Sequence record: OP778609
Origin: Escherichia phage A73
Strand: one strand, 5' to 3'
DNA length: 64,000 bases
The first letter of the stretch is position 1; each line of letters opens with the position of its first letter. A program made the translations under genes and the position numbers. Under the pieces are notes generated by a model that worked only from the letters and a program-made list of their open reading frames with translations, searched no databases and was not told the DNA's origin. Of the stretch, positions 7,003-37,113 are shown piece after piece.

Positions 7003-10000
7003 ATGGCTGAATATAATGATAAGGTCGTGGAAGCATTCGTTACTGCCCCAGATCCTGTCGTAACTACCACTGGTGGTGGAGTTATTTTTGACGGTATTGA
7101 AACAGAAGATACTGTATCAACCCTGCTGATTGGTGATGGTACTGCATCCTCCCCTTTACAAGCGCAAGTCAAACTTTCTCGCCGTGCTGGTAACGCCCTG
7201 ACTATCGTTCAATCCGATACCGAGCAAGGCTTGTTTGCTACTGCCGGAGATGCTAAAGTTTCAGCTTCTCAAGTGAACATTGCAAAATACGTAACTGCGG
7301 AAGAAGCTGCTGCACAAGGCGATGCAGGTCTGGAAGGTATTTTGGTAGAGCCTGTCCATGCGACCACCACCGCAGTTGGCGATGCCTTGGAAATTACCGC
7401 AGATCCTTTGACGGCTAAAAAATCCCGCATTTCCCTGAAAGTTTCCCCTTCCGCAACCAACGCGTTATCTGTAGAGTCAGATGGATTGGCAGTTAAAGTC
7501 TCTCCTGCCGTTGACAACAGCCTGCAAGTCCGTGAAGGTGCACTTTACGTAGCTCCTGTTGGTGCTGATATTTCTCAAGACCCAGGTAACAAACTGGAAC
7601 AGCGTTCAGATGGACTGTTCGTAGAAACCATCAAAGGCGACAAAGGTGATCAGGGCGAGCAAGGACCAGAAGGTCCTCAAGGCCCAGCAGGGGAAGCTGG
7701 ACCTGCTGGACCACAGGGTGAAAAAGGCGACAAAGGCGATCAAGGTGAAGTCGGCCCTGCTGGCGCAACTGGCCCTGCTGGCCTGACTGGTGCAACTGGT
7801 CCTCGTGGTATAGAAGGACCTCGTGGCCCTGCTGGTATTGGTATTAATATCCTAGACACCCTTGCATCTGAAGACCAATTACCTTCTGTTGTTGATCTTT
7901 CGAATGGGGATACCTATGTAATAGGACAGAGTTTCTTTACCGTTATCACTGAAGGTGGTATCAAACAATGGAGAAACGTAGGTAACTTCGCTGGACCTGA
8001 AGGTCTTTCTGCATTTGAAGTTGCTGAAACCGCAGGCTTTGTTGGAACAGTTGATGACTGGTTGGCTACCCTTCGTGGTGCTGATGGAATCGGTCTGCAA
8101 TTACTCGGTTCTTTCCAACGAATTGAAGACCTTCCGGCAGAAGAGAACAACCCAGGCGATGCCTACATCATTCAAGAAAAGATGTATGTTTGGACTGGTG
8201 ATACAGATGGCTGGCAACCTGTAGGACAGATCGGTCCTGAAGGTCGTTCTGCTTATCAGGTCTGGCTGGCTAACGGGAACGTAGGTTCTCAGCGTGAATT
8301 CCTTGAATCACTGAAAGGTGAGAAAGGTGATACTGGCGATCAGGGTCCTCAGGGTATCCCAGGTGCAGATGGTAAAAATGCTAACGCCATTAATATCTTA
8401 GGTTCCGTTGCAGATCAGGCGAGTTTGCCAGAAGGTGCAGATGCAGGTGATGCTTACCTGATCGGTACTAACGTATTCGTTTCTGATGGTGCTGGCAACT
8501 GGCAAGACTTGGGATCTTTCCAAGGTCCGCAAGGTCCTACTGGTGCTAAAGGCGACAAGGGGGACAAAGGGGACAAAGGTGACAAAGGCGATAAAGGTGA
8601 TGACAACTATGCCATCGCAGTTGCTAACGGTTTCCAAGGATCAGTAAATGAATACCTTGCATCTATCAAGGGTGAGAAAGGTGACGTTGGTGCAACTGGC
8701 CCTCGTGGATTAGCTGGTCCACAAGGTGAACAAGGTCCTGTTGGTGCGGGTCTGAATATCCTTGGCTCAGTAGCTTCCGAAGACCAATTGCCTCAGACTG
8801 GTATTAGTGAAGGTGATGCTTATCTGATTGAAGCTGATCTTTATATCTTTACTGGCGGTCAGTGGACTAACGTTGGTAACATCAAAGGTCCCCAAGGGGA
8901 TGTAGGACCACAAGGTCCACAAGGTCCTATTGGTCTGACTGGTGCACAAGGACCGCAGGGTGCAACAGGGGCACAAGGTCCTGCTGGTCCCCAAGGTGAG
9001 ACTGGTCCACAAGGTGGTATTGGTCCACAGGGCGAGACTGGCGAGAAAGGTGACAAGGGCGATAAGGGTGATAAGGGTGATACTGGAATTGGTATCGTTG
9101 CTCGTGGTATTGTTGCAACTCAAGAAGCACTTCCTGCCGATGCCACCACTGGTGACTTCTACGTTGTAGAGTCTGAAGGTAATGGTTATGCTTGGGACGG
9201 CACTGCATGGGTACTGACTGGTCTTACTCGTGGACCTCAGGGTCTGAAGGGCGACAAAGGCGACACTGGTGAGAAAGGAGACAAAGGAGACAAAGGCGAC
9301 GCAGGTGATGCACTGAAGCTGAAAGGTTTGGTTGCAACCTCCGCTGAACTTCCTTCTACTGCTGAATTAGGTGACTTCTACGTAGCTGAAGACACTGGAA
9401 TCGGTTACGCTTGGGATGGCGTGGAATTCGTTTCTGCCGGAACCGTTAGAGGACCGCAAGGTGAAGTAGGGCCTCAGGGTGAAATTGGCCCTCAAGGACC
9501 GCAAGGCGAGAAGGGAGATGCTGGCGACCAAGGACCTCAAGGATTGGTCGGTGAAACAGGTGCAAAAGGTGATAAAGGGGATAAGGGTGACGTTGGCTCT
9601 GGTCTGATTCCGAGAGGAACTTTACCGTCTCAAGCAGACCTTCCTCAAACTGGTGAAGTTGGTGACTTCTACGTAGCTAACGATACTGGTATTGGATATG
9701 CTTTTGACGGAACTACATTCGTAGAAGCTGGCGTTGCCCGTGGTCCACAGGGTGAACAAGGACCTCAGGGTGAACAGGGACCTCAAGGTCTTAAAGGGGA
9801 TACTGGTGAAACAGGTGCTCAGGGACCTCAAGGTGCTCAAGGTGAGAAAGGTGATACCGGAGAACGTGGAGAGGTAGGTCCGCAAGGTGATCAGGGACCG
9901 CAAGGTGAGCAAGGTCCTCAGGGTGATATCGGACCAGGTGTAGAGATCATTGGACGATTTGATACCTCTGATGAATTACCTTCCACGGGTACTTTGGGTC

Positions 10001-10803
10001 AAGGTTACCTTATCCAAGGCGACTTCTGGGGTTGGACTGGTGCAGCATACGAGAACTTGGGTCGTATTCAAGGTCCGGTTGGACCAGTAGGTCCTACGGG
10101 TGACCAAGGACCACAAGGCCCTGTCGGTAACAAAGGCGATAAAGGCGACCAAGGGACCCTTTGGGTAGTTTTTGCTCGTGCACCAATGGTGAGCGATGGT
10201 CGTGTTAACGACCTGTACCTCAACTCTTCCACTCTGGAATATTACCGTAAAACTTCCGCAACGAACTGGGCACTGCTCGGATTCTTAGGTGGTGGTAACG
10301 TGTATGACGCACCAGGGGACGGAAAGCTGTATGTCCGTACTGATGGTGGTTGGGTTGAATTACCTACCGCAGAAGTTCTGGAAGCACCTCGTGATGGTAA
10401 CCAATACGTCCGTAAAGACGGCGCTTGGACAACTGTTACAGTTCCTGTAACGGAAGCACCACTTGAAGGTGGATTCTACGTCCGTGAAAATGGTGCGTGG
10501 GTTAAACTGGATCAGTACGATTTACGTGTTGTTGCTTCAACTGGTGCAATTGATGCAAGCTCTGGTAATGCTTGGACTTTAGATGGTACAACCAACAAGT
10601 CCTTGACTATCACCGGATTGCCAGCAGGAAGGGCTAAAACCATAGTTTTACGATTCACGGGTAACGGTGGTCAGATTAACTGGGATAGCCAGATCGCTTG
10701 GTCTAACGGAACAGCACCTACTCTCGGGGCTACTCGCACTATCCTAACCTTGTTCTGGGATGGTGAGTTCCTGACGGGTACTCAAGCAATGACTATAGGT
10801 TAA
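7003..10803 (+). CDS. Collagen-like repeat fibre protein
   Basis: 1266 aa; AGGAG RBS. Eight Gly-X-Y tracts alternate with ~40-aa modules (LP...GD[AF]Y[LV]...W...G); C-terminal globular region with three YVRxDGxW repeats. Confidence 0.8.
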   Translation: MAEYNDKVVEAFVTAPDPVVTTTGGGVIFDGIETEDTVSTLLIGDGTASSPLQAQVKLSRRAGNALTIVQSDTEQGLFATAGDAKVSASQVNIAKYVTAEEAAAQGDAGLEGILVEPVHATTTAVGDALEITADPLTAKKSRISLKVSPSATNALSVESDGLAVKVSPAVDNSLQVREGALYVAPVGADISQDPGNKLEQRSDGLFVETIKGDKGDQGEQGPEGPQGPAGEAGPAGPQGEKGDKGDQGEVGPAGATGPAGLTGATGPRGIEGPRGPAGIGINILDTLASEDQLPSVVDLSNGDTYVIGQSFFTVITEGGIKQWRNVGNFAGPEGLSAFEVAETAGFVGTVDDWLATLRGADGIGLQLLGSFQRIEDLPAEENNPGDAYIIQEKMYVWTGDTDGWQPVGQIGPEGRSAYQVWLANGNVGSQREFLESLKGEKGDTGDQGPQGIPGADGKNANAINILGSVADQASLPEGADAGDAYLIGTNVFVSDGAGNWQDLGSFQGPQGPTGAKGDKGDKGDKGDKGDKGDDNYAIAVANGFQGSVNEYLASIKGEKGDVGATGPRGLAGPQGEQGPVGAGLNILGSVASEDQLPQTGISEGDAYLIEADLYIFTGGQWTNVGNIKGPQGDVGPQGPQGPIGLTGAQGPQGATGAQGPAGPQGETGPQGGIGPQGETGEKGDKGDKGDKGDTGIGIVARGIVATQEALPADATTGDFYVVESEGNGYAWDGTAWVLTGLTRGPQGLKGDKGDTGEKGDKGDKGDAGDALKLKGLVATSAELPSTAELGDFYVAEDTGIGYAWDGVEFVSAGTVRGPQGEVGPQGEIGPQGPQGEKGDAGDQGPQGLVGETGAKGDKGDKGDVGSGLIPRGTLPSQADLPQTGEVGDFYVANDTGIGYAFDGTTFVEAGVARGPQGEQGPQGEQGPQGLKGDTGETGAQGPQGAQGEKGDTGERGEVGPQGDQGPQGEQGPQGDIGPGVEIIGRFDTSDELPSTGTLGQGYLIQGDFWGWTGAAYENLGRIQGPVGPVGPTGDQGPQGPVGNKGDKGDQGTLWVVFARAPMVSDGRVNDLYLNSSTLEYYRKTSATNWALLGFLGGGNVYDAPGDGKLYVRTDGGWVELPTAEVLEAPRDGNQYVRKDGAWTTVTVPVTEAPLEGGFYVRENGAWVKLDQYDLRVVASTGAIDASSGNAWTLDGTTNKSLTITGLPAGRAKTIVLRFTGNGGQINWDSQIAWSNGTAPTLGATRTILTLFWDGEFLTGTQAMTIG
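8548..8601 (+). repeat. Tandem 9-bp coding repeat (Lys-Gly-Asp units) inside collagen-like gene
   Basis: aaaggcgac aagggggac aaaggggac aaaggtgac aaaggcgat aaaggtgat: six near-identical 9-bp units; similar tracts near 9043-9084, 9249-9300, 9559-9590. Confidence 0.8.
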
Positions 10804-34166: not shown

Positions 34167-34200
34167 AGAAAAGGCGCTCAAATGAGCGCCTTTATTTTTA
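34165..34200. terminator. Bidirectional terminator at strand switch
   Basis: aaagaaaaGGCGCTCAaaTGAGCGCCtttattttta: 8-bp stem flanked by A-run and T-run, between convergent gene blocks. Confidence 0.75.
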
Positions 34201-34214
34201 TCTAAATTTTACGA

Positions 34215-35390
34215 TCAAAACGGAATATCGTCGTCAAAATCCATATCATCTACAGACATATTTACATGTCCTTCAATATCAGGGGTAGGTGAATCTTCTG
34301 CTGACGGAGTTAACTGCGGTTCCGGCTCAGGTTTCTTTTCCTCTTGCTTAGGAGTTGAAGCACCGTTACGGATCTTATCTTCCAATTGACAGATGAATCG
34401 GAAATTCTCTTCAGTCTTAGCAATAAAGGTTTCGATATTGTCACGACCCCAACGGGCAGAAAGAATGCCACACTGGCCTAAACGAGCACCGAAAGAGTAA
34501 TCATCCATAGATTTAAACTCTTCACGCAGTTTTGCTTTGATCGAATCCATCGCTGCAAGAACTTGTTCTACGATCACACCCTGATTTGCAATAGTTTCAT
34601 CAGGGAACATTGCATCGGTAATAGATAGTGCATTACCTAAACGAATAGGTAGATCATCTTTACCTTTACCTGAACGTGATCCTGTTCCAGTACTTGCACC
34701 TTTTGGACCGTAAGCTTTAAAGCCTGTAACCGTACCATCATCTGAACGAACACCTGCAATACGACCACCTTCTGTAATCTGACCCGTCTGTTCATCAGTG
34801 AGGTTTACAGTAACTTCTGTGCCGTCTTCCAGCTTAACAACTACCTTATTGCCTTCGATAGATGTGATATCACCATAAATCTTCTTAGCTGCACCACCAG
34901 ACGGCTTTTGCTGCTGTTGGGAACCACTTGATTGCTGCTGTTGCTGACGAGGCTCACGAGCACCGGATGCGTCAGTAATCTTGATACGTGCTTTCTTACC
35001 TTCTGTAGAAGAACCTTGACTACCATCTTGTTTGGTATAGGTCTTGATAACAACAGGTAAACGAATTTTCATACCCTCTTTAAGATCGGTGTAACCACCT
35101 TCAGGATTTTTAATCTGGAACTGATTCTCATACTTCAGATTTTTAACTTCACCCTCACCAAAAGAAATCCATGCTTGATCTTCACCTTCTTTAAGAAGAA
35201 CCGCATAGCGGTGGGTATTGTTAATGCTTTTCTGCTGACCAGTATTCTTGTCTTTGAAGGTAGTCACTCGTGGGCTACCATCTTCATTAATACGTTTGAT
35301 CATGATACGTTCAATCGTACCTGCTGCAATGTTTACTGTGGTATCGGAAACAGCATCGTATACAGCATTGATAACTTTAACTTCAGACAT
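34215..35390 (-). CDS. SSB-like protein with C-terminal acidic DDDIPF tail
   Basis: 391 aa; ends ...SVDDMDFDDDIPF, matching the bacterial SSB C-terminal tail; Gln-rich linker; N-terminal OB fold not verified. Confidence 0.5.
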   Translation of the reverse strand: MSEVKVINAVYDAVSDTTVNIAAGTIERIMIKRINEDGSPRVTTFKDKNTGQQKSINNTHRYAVLLKEGEDQAWISFGEGEVKNLKYENQFQIKNPEGGYTDLKEGMKIRLPVVIKTYTKQDGSQGSSTEGKKARIKITDASGAREPRQQQQQSSGSQQQQKPSGGAAKKIYGDITSIEGNKVVVKLEDGTEVTVNLTDEQTGQITEGGRIAGVRSDDGTVTGFKAYGPKGASTGTGSRSGKGKDDLPIRLGNALSITDAMFPDETIANQGVIVEQVLAAMDSIKAKLREEFKSMDDYSFGARLGQCGILSARWGRDNIETFIAKTEENFRFICQLEDKIRNGASTPKQEEKKPEPEPQLTPSAEDSPTPDIEGHVNMSVDDMDFDDDIPF

Positions 35391-35473: not shown

Positions 35474-35854
35474 TTAGAGATAAACTCGCTTAACTTTTTC
35501 ATGAACATTATCAAACAAAGTGTTGATCATCTGCAAGTCTTTAATAAGTTCTTCCGTAAATTGTTCTTCTTTGTGAGCAAACACACGAGAACGGTCAATG
35601 TTTACAGGATCTGAACTTTGGTCGCCTGACAGATCGAAAATGTCGATACCGATACGAGCACGGCCTTTTTCAATCTTGTTGTTTTCATCAATACCGAAGA
35701 CACTCATGATTTGCATTTCACGATCTTCTTCACTGTTTGTGTAAATGATCGTCGTATTCAAATTCTTAACACCATCGTAAATGTGAATGTTACGTGTCGC
35801 AGAGATAGGAATCCAATCAGCAACCAAATAATCTTTACCGTCGAAAATACTCAT
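35474..35854 (-). CDS. Hypothetical protein
   Basis: 126-aa ORF in the - strand early block; no motif. Confidence 0.45.
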   Translation of the reverse strand: MSIFDGKDYLVADWIPISATRNIHIYDGVKNLNTTIIYTNSEEDREMQIMSVFGIDENNKIEKGRARIGIDIFDLSGDQSSDPVNIDRSRVFAHKEEQFTEELIKDLQMINTLFDNVHEKVKRVYL

Positions 35855-35908
35855 CTTCTTTCCTCTTTTGTTTAAGTGGGGCCATTATGCCCCACACTTA
35901 ACTTTCTG

Positions 35909-36481
35909 TCAAGGACGTTTCGGTGGACTAACGACACCTTTTTTAGATAAAGGTAATTCGTCTGCATCTTTTCCACGGAGAGATTCTAACCACTCATCTA
36001 AAGATAGAGGTACTTTGCCAACACCCTTGGACCATACAGATAAGCAATACAGGTCGTATGCAGATGGGCCAGCATCACCCTTGTCACCATACGGCCCTTT
36101 TAAACTCGCCAACCAATCCTTTTCATTCAGTGGGATAGTGCCTGGATCTTCTTGTCGAAGAACTCTTAGGTATGTTTCATAAGCAGACTCTCCACGGGGA
36201 CCCATTGGACCAGGTAAACCTTGCGGTCCCTTTGCATAGTCTAAATATGCAGACTTTGAACCATCATTGACCACTGAAACTTTATACAATGACCAAGCCA
36301 ACAGAACTATCCAACAAGCAAACAATGCAAGCGGGTAAGGGATCATTGAAGTAAAGAATGACAGGGCTAAAATTACAACCTTGTTCTTGTGATCACGACG
36401 GAAAGCGATGATCACAGGGGCTAACCAGATAGCAAAGATAACCCACGCAGATAAGATAAACAACCAACTAATGTATTCCAT
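35909..36481 (-). CDS. Membrane protein with collagen-like/fibre-type motifs
   Basis: 190 aa; three N-terminal TM helices, then [39 protein letters not shown] and SLRGKD segments. Confidence 0.5.
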   Translation of the reverse strand: MEYISWLFILSAWVIFAIWLAPVIIAFRRDHKNKVVILALSFFTSMIPYPLALFACWIVLLAWSLYKVSVVNDGSKSAYLDYAKGPQGLPGPMGPRGESAYETYLRVLRQEDPGTIPLNEKDWLASLKGPYGDKGDAGPSAYDLYCLSVWSKGVGKVPLSLDEWLESLRGKDADELPLSKKGVVSPPKRP

Positions 36482-36669
36482 TAAGCCTCCTCAGTATCGT
36501 CTTTAAAGTAATCTAACATCCAACTCTCTACAGGTTTCGCATAGTAACCCGTTCGCCCTTTCTTTTGGAACTCCATAACAATTTCATTTGCAATACCTTT
36601 TGTGATTGCGATCCCGATCAGTGCACCACCAGGCCCCATTACTGCATGTGAACTAAGATCATTACTCAT
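36481..36669 (-). CDS. Hypothetical small protein
   Basis: 62-aa ORF, start overlaps upstream stop. Confidence 0.35.
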   Translation of the reverse strand: MSNDLSSHAVMGPGGALIGIAITKGIANEIVMEFQKKGRTGYYAKPVESWMLDYFKDDTEEA

Positions 36670-36961
36670 TTTTAACCCCCTTCATTTTATCTCTTAAACT
36701 TTGAGCATCCCACGTATAACCTGAGGAGATACCTTTTTCACGTTCACTATCTTTGAACTTGCAAATTACAGATTTTGCTTCACCATCAACAACAACCGCA
36801 TAACTGTTGTAGTAATTGTGTTGCTTCTTGCAAAATTCGTGTAACTCCTTGACCTCTATTGGCATCAGAGAAGGTAGATTTTTGTATCGCTTTGTCTGAT
36901 CATCTTCACCCTCTCCGCAACCAACAAGAAGAAGTATACATAAAATGATTAACCTTTTCAA
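36662..36961 (-). CDS. Putative lipoprotein
   Basis: 99 aa; N-terminus MKRLIILCILLLVGCGEG with lipobox LVGC. Confidence 0.5.
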   Translation of the reverse strand: MKRLIILCILLLVGCGEGEDDQTKRYKNLPSLMPIEVKELHEFCKKQHNYYNSYAVVVDGEAKSVICKFKDSEREKGISSGYTWDAQSLRDKMKGVKNE

Positions 36962-37113
36962 TAGCTACCCCCAAAATATTTTGTAGTCTCTACTGCAAAT
37001 ATTGTCCCAAGTATGAACCATGTCGCACTTAGCACGTTGAAAGGTAAAAACCTCGATCCTGCAAGAGAAACCATAATAAAAAACGTTACAAAAATCTCTG
37101 GAGGAATCATCAT
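36958..37113 (-). CDS. Small hydrophobic peptide (not in ORF track)
   Basis: 51-aa ORF MMIPPEIFVTFFIMVSLAGSRFLPFNVLSATWFILGTIFAVETTKYFGGSY; ATG overlaps stop of upstream gene (ATGA). Confidence 0.35.
   Translation of the reverse strand: MMIPPEIFVTFFIMVSLAGSRFLPFNVLSATWFILGTIFAVETTKYFGGSY

Follow-up and report, generated by a model that had tools for sequence, protein, structure and literature searches.

Why does a phage encode, in a block of non-structural genes, a small membrane protein that carries the same sequence motif as its collagen-like virion fibre? This question is raised by W70_103, a protein of 190 amino acids (aa) encoded in a stretch of 64,000 nucleotides (nt) from Escherichia phage A73 (sequence record OP778609), the whole of which is referred to here as the window. 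An original prediction, made from the letters of the window and its open reading frames (ORFs), described three N-terminal transmembrane helices followed by a copy of a motif from the 1266-aa fibre, and proposed that the protein acts as a decoy, an exclusion factor or an assembly anchor. We find with high confidence that W70_103 instead joins a divergent N-terminal Imm_superinfect (PF14373) domain to short collagen-like tracts and to a module that is generic among phage collagen-like proteins, and we regard the chance that it is an Imm-type superinfection-exclusion protein as evenly balanced. The gene is the following.

35909..36481, minus strand: whole gene W70_103, 190 aa, stop codon 35909-35911

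The ORF corresponds to hypothetical protein W70_103 in OP778610.1 (Escherichia phage W70, Vequintavirinae), a window coordinate being the record coordinate minus 1, and its length of 190 aa is as the original prediction gave it. It begins with ATG, and this start overlaps the stop of the upstream ORF. W70_103 shares 90% aa identity with the UPEC06 orthologue at a pN/pS of 0.19, with the transmembrane, stalk and tail parts alike, indicating a genuine coding gene under purifying selection. Its position is close to the 3′ end of a long run of leftward genes, small or of replication type; this block and the rightward block of tail-fibre genes converge at a hairpin (34170-34193) that resembles a bidirectional terminator. 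The homologous region of Certrevirus has been described as probably early (PMC7344957). A promoter scan did not rise above chance and is therefore uninformative on the timing of W70_103.

The evidence for a known protein kind comes from the membrane-embedded N-terminal part.

36266..36481, minus strand: Imm_superinfect-like membrane domain, aa 1-72, identified with Pfam, PHROG, hhalign and AlphaFold2

AlphaFold2 models this domain as three hydrophobic helices, at aa 2-28, 34-46 and 48-72, with a predicted local distance difference test score (pLDDT) of 82-89. The helix count of the original prediction stands in this respect; hydropathy resolves two hydrophobic regions, 4-27 and 35-66, and the arguments on topology, taken up below, point both ways. 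A basic loop, RRDHKNK, occupies aa 28-34 between the first two helices, and the conserved residues of the domain are P22, A26, R29, H31, N33, P48 and W57. In Pfam, aa 18-43 align with positions 1-26 of the 42-position PF14373 profile (E 0.0015, 18.8 bits), and in PHROGs the protein matches phrog_1039, 'immunity to superinfection' (E 8.9e-6), and phrog_15593, which has no assigned function (E 1.6e-21). PF14373 is also matched by five of nine orthologues at E <= 0.1 (best E 1.8e-5), stands as a precomputed annotation on the orthologues P0019, P0023, P0025, P0036 and P0128, and agrees with the UniRef name of the CR8 and PBES 02 orthologues, 'Superinfection immunity protein'. NCBIfam gave no meaningful match.

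Profile comparisons extend this relationship to the one Imm protein that has been studied. A profile of the family N-domain aligned with T4 Imm (sequence from NC_000866, itself a PF14373 match at E 7e-16) over 50-55 columns in hhalign, with a probability of 80.5-80.8% and E 1.3e-5. When the same profile was searched with HMMER against 1.84 billion representatives, 100 hits were returned at E <= 1e-3 with family members at the top, and all 80 of the 80 distant hits scanned with Pfam were PF14373 proteins. Comparison of the family profile with these 80 by hhalign gave a probability of 99.1% and E 4.3e-19; they had been chosen by similarity to the query profile, and their membership of PF14373 was confirmed independently by Pfam. 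Homology at the profile level was thus found both to T4 Imm and to members of PF14373 at large. The signature P22-x-x-I-A26-x-x-R29-x-H31-x-N33, followed by a second hydrophobic region with W57, is present, and P22, A26, R29, H31, N33 and W57 are invariant or nearly so in the family and align with the PF14373 consensus.

These results point strongly to a divergent Imm_superinfect domain at the N-terminus of W70_103. T4 Imm has the same order of a hydrophobic helix, a basic P-x-x-I-A-x-x-R-x-H/S-x-N/S loop and a second hydrophobic region with Trp, and both proteins are small and encoded in a non-structural gene context of lytic myoviruses. W70 R29 aligns with T4 Imm R33, a functionally important position: the substitutions R33A and W50A reportedly weaken exclusion, and the helical-bundle domain of gp29, the tape measure, is reported as the binding site of T4 Imm (bioRxiv 10.64898/2026.03.06.709160). 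Within PF14373, exclusion of superinfecting DNA and tape-measure binding have been shown for T4 Imm only (bioRxiv 10.64898/2026.03.06.709160). The two proteins differ in that the family has a 6-residue insertion in the second hydrophobic region, containing the invariant Pro48, at the position of the T4 Imm N49-W50-S51 loop, and in that T4 Imm is an 83-aa protein with an 18-residue tail, whereas W70_103 continues for 118 aa beyond its membrane domain. That extension consists of G-X-Y tracts, modules and a C-terminal peptide ending the protein.

36230..36262, minus strand: linker, aa 74-84, GSKSAYLDYAK, holding a partial module copy (SKSAYLDYAK, aa 75-84)
36185..36229, minus strand: G-X-Y tract 1, five triplets, aa 85-99, GPQGLPGPMGPRGES; Pfam Collagen at 14.7 bits, below the cut-off
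36095..36187, minus strand: module 1, aa 99-129, SAYETYLRVLRQEDPGTIPLNEKDWLASLKG; SAYETY...DWLASLKG, predicted helix-loop-helix (100-108, 120-126)
36062..36097, minus strand: G-X-Y tract 2, four triplets, aa 129-140
35972..36064, minus strand: module 2, aa 140-170, SAYDLYCLSVWSKGVGKVPLSLDEWLESLRG; SAYDLY...EWLESLRG, predicted helices 141-151 and 161-167
35912..35971, minus strand: conserved C-terminal peptide, aa 171-190, KDADELPLSKKGVVSPPKRP; conserved across the family

The module was defined as a 24-31-aa helix-loop-helix that starts a helix with [ST]A[YF], ends in [DE][WFY]Lx[ST][LI][KR]G and stands directly between G-X-Y tracts. W70_103 contains two full copies, each between or next to such tracts, the second of which holds an unpaired cysteine, Cys146. 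The linker carrying the partial copy has a 5-aa indel in A7_1, LTH01 and UPEC06. Both G-X-Y tracts together, of five and four triplets, leave W70_103 at 14.7 bits against Collagen (PF01391), below the cut-off of 27.2 bits, and PF01391 is carried by orthologues with 10-13 triplets. AlphaFold2 models each module as a helix-loop-helix at low confidence, the stalk of the monomer having a pLDDT of 40-60. In the C-terminal part, an alignment of 30 sequences shows G170, D172, A173, E175, P177, L178, S179, G182 and V183 to be invariant or nearly so. The DNA of modules 1 and 2 is identical at only 46 of 96 nucleotides, so their duplication in the W70 lineage is old.

The SAY...WLxSLKG module has no Pfam model and, in searches with the stalk and with a canonical 5-module protein, no entry in the Protein Data Bank (PDB), and a literature search with the literal module string found no paper citing the motif. 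Separately, module 1 (36095-36187, aa 97-124 of W70_103 in these matches) weakly resembles the YbdD/YjiX (DUF466) core, with E 0.005 to PF04328 Sel_put and E 0.0025 to NF033934 KCU-star. Both matches lie below the cut-offs and occur in members of the W70 clade only, and the likeness may reflect chance or a common helix-Pro-loop-helix pattern.

Given that the motif was the reason for linking W70_103 to the virion, we compared the two proteins directly. Beside its triplet tracts, the 1266-aa fibre (7003-10803) contains three modules, whose last nucleotides are 8079, 8319 and 8673.

8008..8079, plus strand: fibre module f1, 24 aa, SAFEVAETAGFVGTVDDWLATLRG, in the 1266-aa fibre
8248..8319, plus strand: fibre module f2, 24 aa, SAYQVWLANGNVGSQREFLESLKG, the best BLASTP partner of module 1
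8602..8673, plus strand: fibre module f3, 24 aa, DNYAIAVANGFQGSVNEYLASIKG, with G-X-Y tracts on both sides

A six-frame scan of the window with the strict pattern [DENQ][WFY][LI]x[ST][LI][KR]G returned five sites only, two in W70_103 and three in the fibre. The best BLASTP high-scoring segment pair between the proteins covers 51 aa at 39% identity (E 9e-07, composition-based statistics), and the local scores of the modules alone against the fibre were matched by 13 of 1000 and 9 of 1000 shuffles, about 1% and thus above chance; the partial copy scored no better than shuffles. That the SAY...[DE]WLxSL[KR]G motif occurs in both proteins, in two full and one partial copy against three modules, is therefore upheld. 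Its reading as a copy of this phage's own fibre motif is not. The modules measure 31 aa in W70_103 and 24 aa in the fibre; they score 62 against each other, 54 for module 2 against the module of the orthologue P0029, and 29-40 against the fibre modules; and blastn between W70_103 and the fibre gene found no nucleotide similarity beyond 11-14-nt G-X-Y words. On these grounds of subtype length, lower scores and DNA, a recent copy from the phage's own fibre was rejected.

Database-wide searches lead to the same view. PHROG tail-fibre families match the repeat region only, aa 62-140 (E 2e-7 to 8e-5). In tblastn, aa 64-180 of W70_103 were matched by fibre proteins of unrelated phages, namely those of Streptomyces, Ralstonia, Pseudomonas, Xanthomonas and Erwinia (E 4e-6 to 8e-4), and the fibre of W70 itself was not among these database-wide matches. 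In the Listeria phage LPJP1 protein QXN67846.1, five tandem GKSAYELAKLAGFSGTEAEWLASLKG units stand between G-X-Y tracts. We therefore hold, with the same high confidence as for the architecture and the Imm homology, that the module is a generic phage collagen-interrupting repeat and not one specific to the phage's own fibre. W70_103 resembles collagen-like phage fibres, including the EPcl proteins (PMC3368898), the W70 fibre and LPJP1 QXN67846.1, in having G-X-Y tracts interrupted by short non-collagen modules, and in the latter two the end motifs of SAY...WLxSLKG and its position between tracts are as in W70_103. In the EPcl proteins of enterohaemorrhagic Escherichia coli prophages, the flanking domains are others, PCoil, Pf2 and PfC (PMC3368898). 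W70_103 differs from all of these fibres in lacking a virion-attachment N-domain and a receptor-binding C-domain, in its membrane anchor, in its place outside the structural block, and in a module of 31 aa rather than 24-26 aa.

This bears on the proposal that W70_103 mimics the fibre, either co-trimerising with or docking the 1266-aa protein during assembly through the shared module, or acting as a decoy that incoming virions or host receptors would engage. The module with its flanking G-X-Y tracts is indeed common to both proteins, and a stalk on the cytoplasmic side, if that is where it lies, would sit where fibres fold. Most orthologues have no modules at all, however, and the module is not fibre-specific, which disfavours both a decoy and an assembly anchor; those of W70_103 are also closer to family modules than to the fibre. 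Nor does the protein have the termini of a virion fibre: it begins with a membrane domain, ends in a 20-aa peptide and is encoded in a leftward non-structural block, and what its family conserves is the Imm core and the PLSKxG tail. We consider this explanation very improbable. In the fibre itself, two stretches at about aa 1070-1130 match Fibritin_C (foldon-like; E 1.3e-10), and three tandem ..G..YVR.DG.W..L units, noted by eye, follow the last collagen tract.

The distribution of the module becomes clear from the family as a whole, which is specific to Vequintavirinae. Homologues occupy the same genomic slot in the Certrevirus phages CR3, CR8, CR9, PBES 02, KaOmega, POP15 and PcCB7V, in Salmonella phage SSBI34, in the W70 group (A5-4, A7_1, LTH01 and UPEC06) and in metagenomic contigs of the same phage type. 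This slot is upstream of a DUF7325 gene and a gene for a protein of ~400 aa, shortly ahead of the convergent fibre genes. A total of 45 cluster representatives (at least 45 sequence clusters) share both the Imm-like core and a C-terminal peptide of the form (D)A(D)E-[IVL]P[LI]SKxG with basic residues after it, and the spacer between core and peptide ranges from 7 to 114 residues. Most members have 3-13 uninterrupted G-X-Y triplets, with spacer lengths that step by whole triplets; P0029, P0030, P0032, P0035, P0039 and P0127 add one module to the triplets; and the W70 clade alone has two modules and a partial copy, the longest form in the family. P0033, of 89 aa, has no stalk and keeps the peptide. 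Altogether, 36 of the 45 representatives lack the module, having G-X-Y triplets only or no stalk. Across the family, conservation falls on the Imm-like core and the PLSKxG peptide rather than on the module.

In a crude neighbour-joining tree built from the N-domains, members with modules fall in several places, and the W70 clade has P0039, with its one module, as its sister. This scatter suggests repeated gain or loss of the module within the family, and tandem duplication in the W70 lineage. A full-length family alignment used as a word-index protein query returned 11 hits only, dominated by collagen words, and limited literature searches found no description of a protein in which collagen-like repeats and fibre-type modules are joined to an Imm/PF14373 core.

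The persistence of the peptide brings forward another explanation, in which the PF14373-like helices are a mere anchor and the PLSKxG-basic peptide is the active part, binding a host envelope or cytoplasmic factor in takeover, envelope remodelling or the timing of lysis and not directed against superinfecting phages. The peptide is the most conserved element outside the membrane and is kept even where there is no stalk, and PF14373 is otherwise uncharacterised and found fused to many unrelated bacterial domains, such as SHOCT and zinc ribbons; for these reasons such a tethered effector is a serious alternative. The neighbouring genes, encoding a lipoprotein and a small membrane protein without assigned function, would suit it as well. 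The conserved core residues P22, A26, R29, H31 and N33 are, on the other hand, those of PF14373 and T4 Imm, including a position important in T4, and count against it because a mere anchor would not need them. We place the probability of this explanation at roughly one chance in four, clearly above that of fibre mimicry.

If W70_103 is an Imm-type exclusion protein, we infer the following course of events. The protein would be made from the leftward replication and early block and inserted into the inner membrane with its N-terminus outside. As in T4 Imm, the helical core and the loop at the junction of helices 2 and 3 would engage the tape-measure or tail-tip apparatus of a related phage arriving later, so that formation of the inner-membrane channel would be blocked and the superinfecting DNA excluded after adsorption. 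HK97 gp15, one of the inner-membrane exclusion proteins that act on the tape measure, is prophage-encoded and is not known to have a collagen-like part. It has been cited as analogous to Imm (bioRxiv 10.64898/2026.03.06.709160), and its likeness to the role proposed for W70_103, that of a small inner-membrane protein blocking tape-measure-dependent DNA entry, is one of analogy, with no sequence relationship claimed. The G-X-Y tracts, registered by the helix-loop-helix modules, would oligomerise W70_103, most likely as a trimer, and the resulting collagen-like stalk would carry the PLSKxG peptide. The modules would serve as structural knots for nucleation and registration, like those between the collagen tracts of many phage fibres; a role in registration or trimerisation is suggested by their position between triplet tracts and, in one-module members, directly before the C-terminal peptide. 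They would have been gained within the gene family and duplicated in the W70 clade, not copied from the W70 fibre. An exclusion role, which had been among the original proposals, thus draws independent support from the homology of the N-domain to T4 Imm and PF14373, evidence that did not enter into the original prediction.

Which side of the membrane the stalk would occupy depends on the second hydrophobic region. Canonical PF14373 proteins have a second helix of 23-24 aa, and some have a signal peptide and a periplasmic N-region, features that imply an outside N-terminus, an inside basic loop and an outside C-terminus; in the AlphaFold2 model a single non-helical residue separates helices 34-46 and 48-72, forming a kink and not a hairpin. 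These observations favour a periplasmic stalk. A cytoplasmic one, which goes with the three transmembrane helices of the original prediction, is favoured by the length of the second hydrophobic region in the family, 30-35 aa (mean 32.1), and by the invariant Pro at its centre, by polar inserts at this Pro in some members (GPFPDEYKW, GPFSDQYQW), by the K/R-rich tails of stalk-less members (6 K/R in 21-24 aa) and by the unpaired Cys146 in module 2.

Several points weigh against assigning W70_103 to Imm-type exclusion. The topology is ambiguous, the stalk being periplasmic or cytoplasmic. The PF14373 score of W70_103, 18.8 bits, falls below the gathering cut-off of 27.9 bits, and W70_103 and T4 Imm are no more than ~24% identical, over a domain that is hydrophobic. 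To our knowledge, T4 Imm is the sole characterised member of PF14373, most others being bacterial proteins with no established role, and the transfer of function to W70_103 is uncertain for this reason. Foldseek searches of BFVD and PDB with models of the full protein and the N-domain gave no significant Imm match, the UPEC06-type orthologue alone being matched; the PDB copy did not contain T4 Imm, and small helical membrane proteins are poorly discriminated, which accounts for the lack of an Imm-like fold match. A profile search of PDB with the N-domain gave no hits, and PADLOC gave none for the protein. Tracts of four and five triplets are short if they alone are to form a stable triple helix, and the monomer model of the stalk has a low pLDDT. 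The 7-114-residue spread of the spacer means that no fixed reach is required, and an Imm-type function does not explain why the PLSKxG peptide is the best-conserved element.

One elaboration of the exclusion reading would give that peptide a part, and we consider it rather unlikely, less so than fibre mimicry. W70_103 would here be a new type of exclusion device, in which the Imm core, as a trimer, has the same symmetry as the incoming tail tip or tape measure and a fibre-derived stalk of evolvable length presents the invariant PLSKxG as a second contact. Within this same tentative proposal, this contact would form either on the periplasmic side, where it would intercept the tail tube or tape measure ahead of the membrane, or on the cytoplasmic side, where it would cap the channel exit.

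The genes immediately upstream raise the further question of whether W70_103 works with a partner.

36481-36669, minus strand: 62-aa ORF between the lipoprotein gene and W70_103, found in the W70 clade only
36662..36961, minus strand: 99-aa lipoprotein gene upstream of W70_103, lipobox LLVG|C, phrog_15849
36958..37113, minus strand: 51-aa two-helix membrane protein upstream of W70_103, phrog_22594

The 62-aa ORF has no match in Pfam or PHROGs. The lipoprotein gene starts with TTG, encodes two more Cys besides that of the lipobox and has no Pfam match; in the UPEC06 record only a 67-aa version, from an internal Met, is annotated. A lipoprotein gene lies just upstream of the family gene in W70, CR3, CR9, KaOmega, POP15, PcCB7V, SSBI34 and the locus L016, in which it forms a fusion with the gene of the small membrane protein, and is absent at the metagenomic loci L013 and L015. 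The 51-aa membrane protein is kept upstream of the family gene in Certrevirus and also occurs near distant members; it is present but uncalled in the contigs L013 (3846-4000) and L015 (3856-4000).

This arrangement recalls Rz/Rz1, in which an inner-membrane protein with an extended oligomeric domain is encoded beside a lipoprotein gene, and W70_103 and the upstream lipoprotein could be imagined to bridge the periplasm as a spanin-like pair acting in lysis. The recurrence of the lipoprotein gene just upstream speaks for such a pair, as does the possible reach of a trimeric stalk across a part of the periplasm. The resemblance ends there: in a two-component spanin, an i-spanin with one N-terminal transmembrane segment and a periplasmic coiled coil forms an obligatory pair with an o-spanin, whose lipoprotein gene is embedded in, overlaps or follows that of the i-spanin. 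Here the lipoprotein gene comes first and is not always present, the Imm-like anchor has several helices, unlike that of i-spanins, the stalk varies from 0 to ~110 residues, and neither PHROG nor Pfam gave a spanin match. A conserved Rz/Rz1 pair is moreover already present beside the terminase gene in Certrevirus, rV5 and PVP-SE1 (PMC7344957). We rejected the identity of a two-component spanin on the basis of anchor, gene order, the inconstant lipoprotein gene and the location of Rz/Rz1 in relatives, and this is the least probable of the explanations considered.

Two further genes lie downstream of W70_103.

35474-35854, minus strand: 126-aa DUF7325 protein, PF24011 at E 1e-27
34215-35390, minus strand: 391-aa protein, phrog_4477, function not assigned

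At the loci examined, the DUF7325 gene follows the Imm-collagen gene, in some cases after one or two intervening small genes. The 391-aa protein has a Gln/Ser/Gly-rich linker and the C-terminus ...DMDFDDDIPF, an acidic tip of the same kind as that of bacterial single-stranded DNA-binding protein (SSB), and may be an SSB-like hub protein. An extra gene of ~215 aa stands directly downstream of the Imm-collagen gene in CR9 (L003 2817-3461), KaOmega (L005 2830-3483) and POP15 (L006 2823-3461) and is absent in CR3, PcCB7V and W70. The 54-nt gap directly after the W70_103 stop contains a G+C-rich hairpin, GTGGGGCCATTATGCCCCAC (35876-35895), and a sigma-70-like site on the minus strand, TTGACA-17-CATAAT (35884-35912), overlaps this hairpin.

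As read from the sequences, the fusion of an Imm core to collagen-like repeats and fibre-type modules is a new architecture of a known kind of protein; should the exclusion function not be confirmed, the finding would shrink to an unusual domain fusion. Studies of the very large family of Imm proteins had dealt with T4 Imm alone, and a mechanism for it, binding of the tape measure, was put forward no earlier than 2026, in a preprint. The present analysis adds a conserved, syntenic Imm-like family in rV5-related phages, a group used in therapy cocktails. It also presents the SAY...WLxSLKG module as a portable unit used outside virion fibres, and the family bears on whether collagen-like triple helices serve as membrane-anchored scaffolds in bacteria. 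The natural series of C-termini, with no stalk, with 3-13 triplets, and with one or two modules, offers a way to ask whether oligomerisation or reach matters for exclusion and what determines its specificity. If the tentative exclusion-device proposal were true, stalk length and the gain and loss of modules would be an arms-race variable setting which phages are excluded, and the products of the neighbouring genes, the small membrane protein and the lipoprotein, would act as accessories of one envelope-spanning exclusion complex. For phages combined in a cocktail, a gene of this family could cause mutual exclusion.

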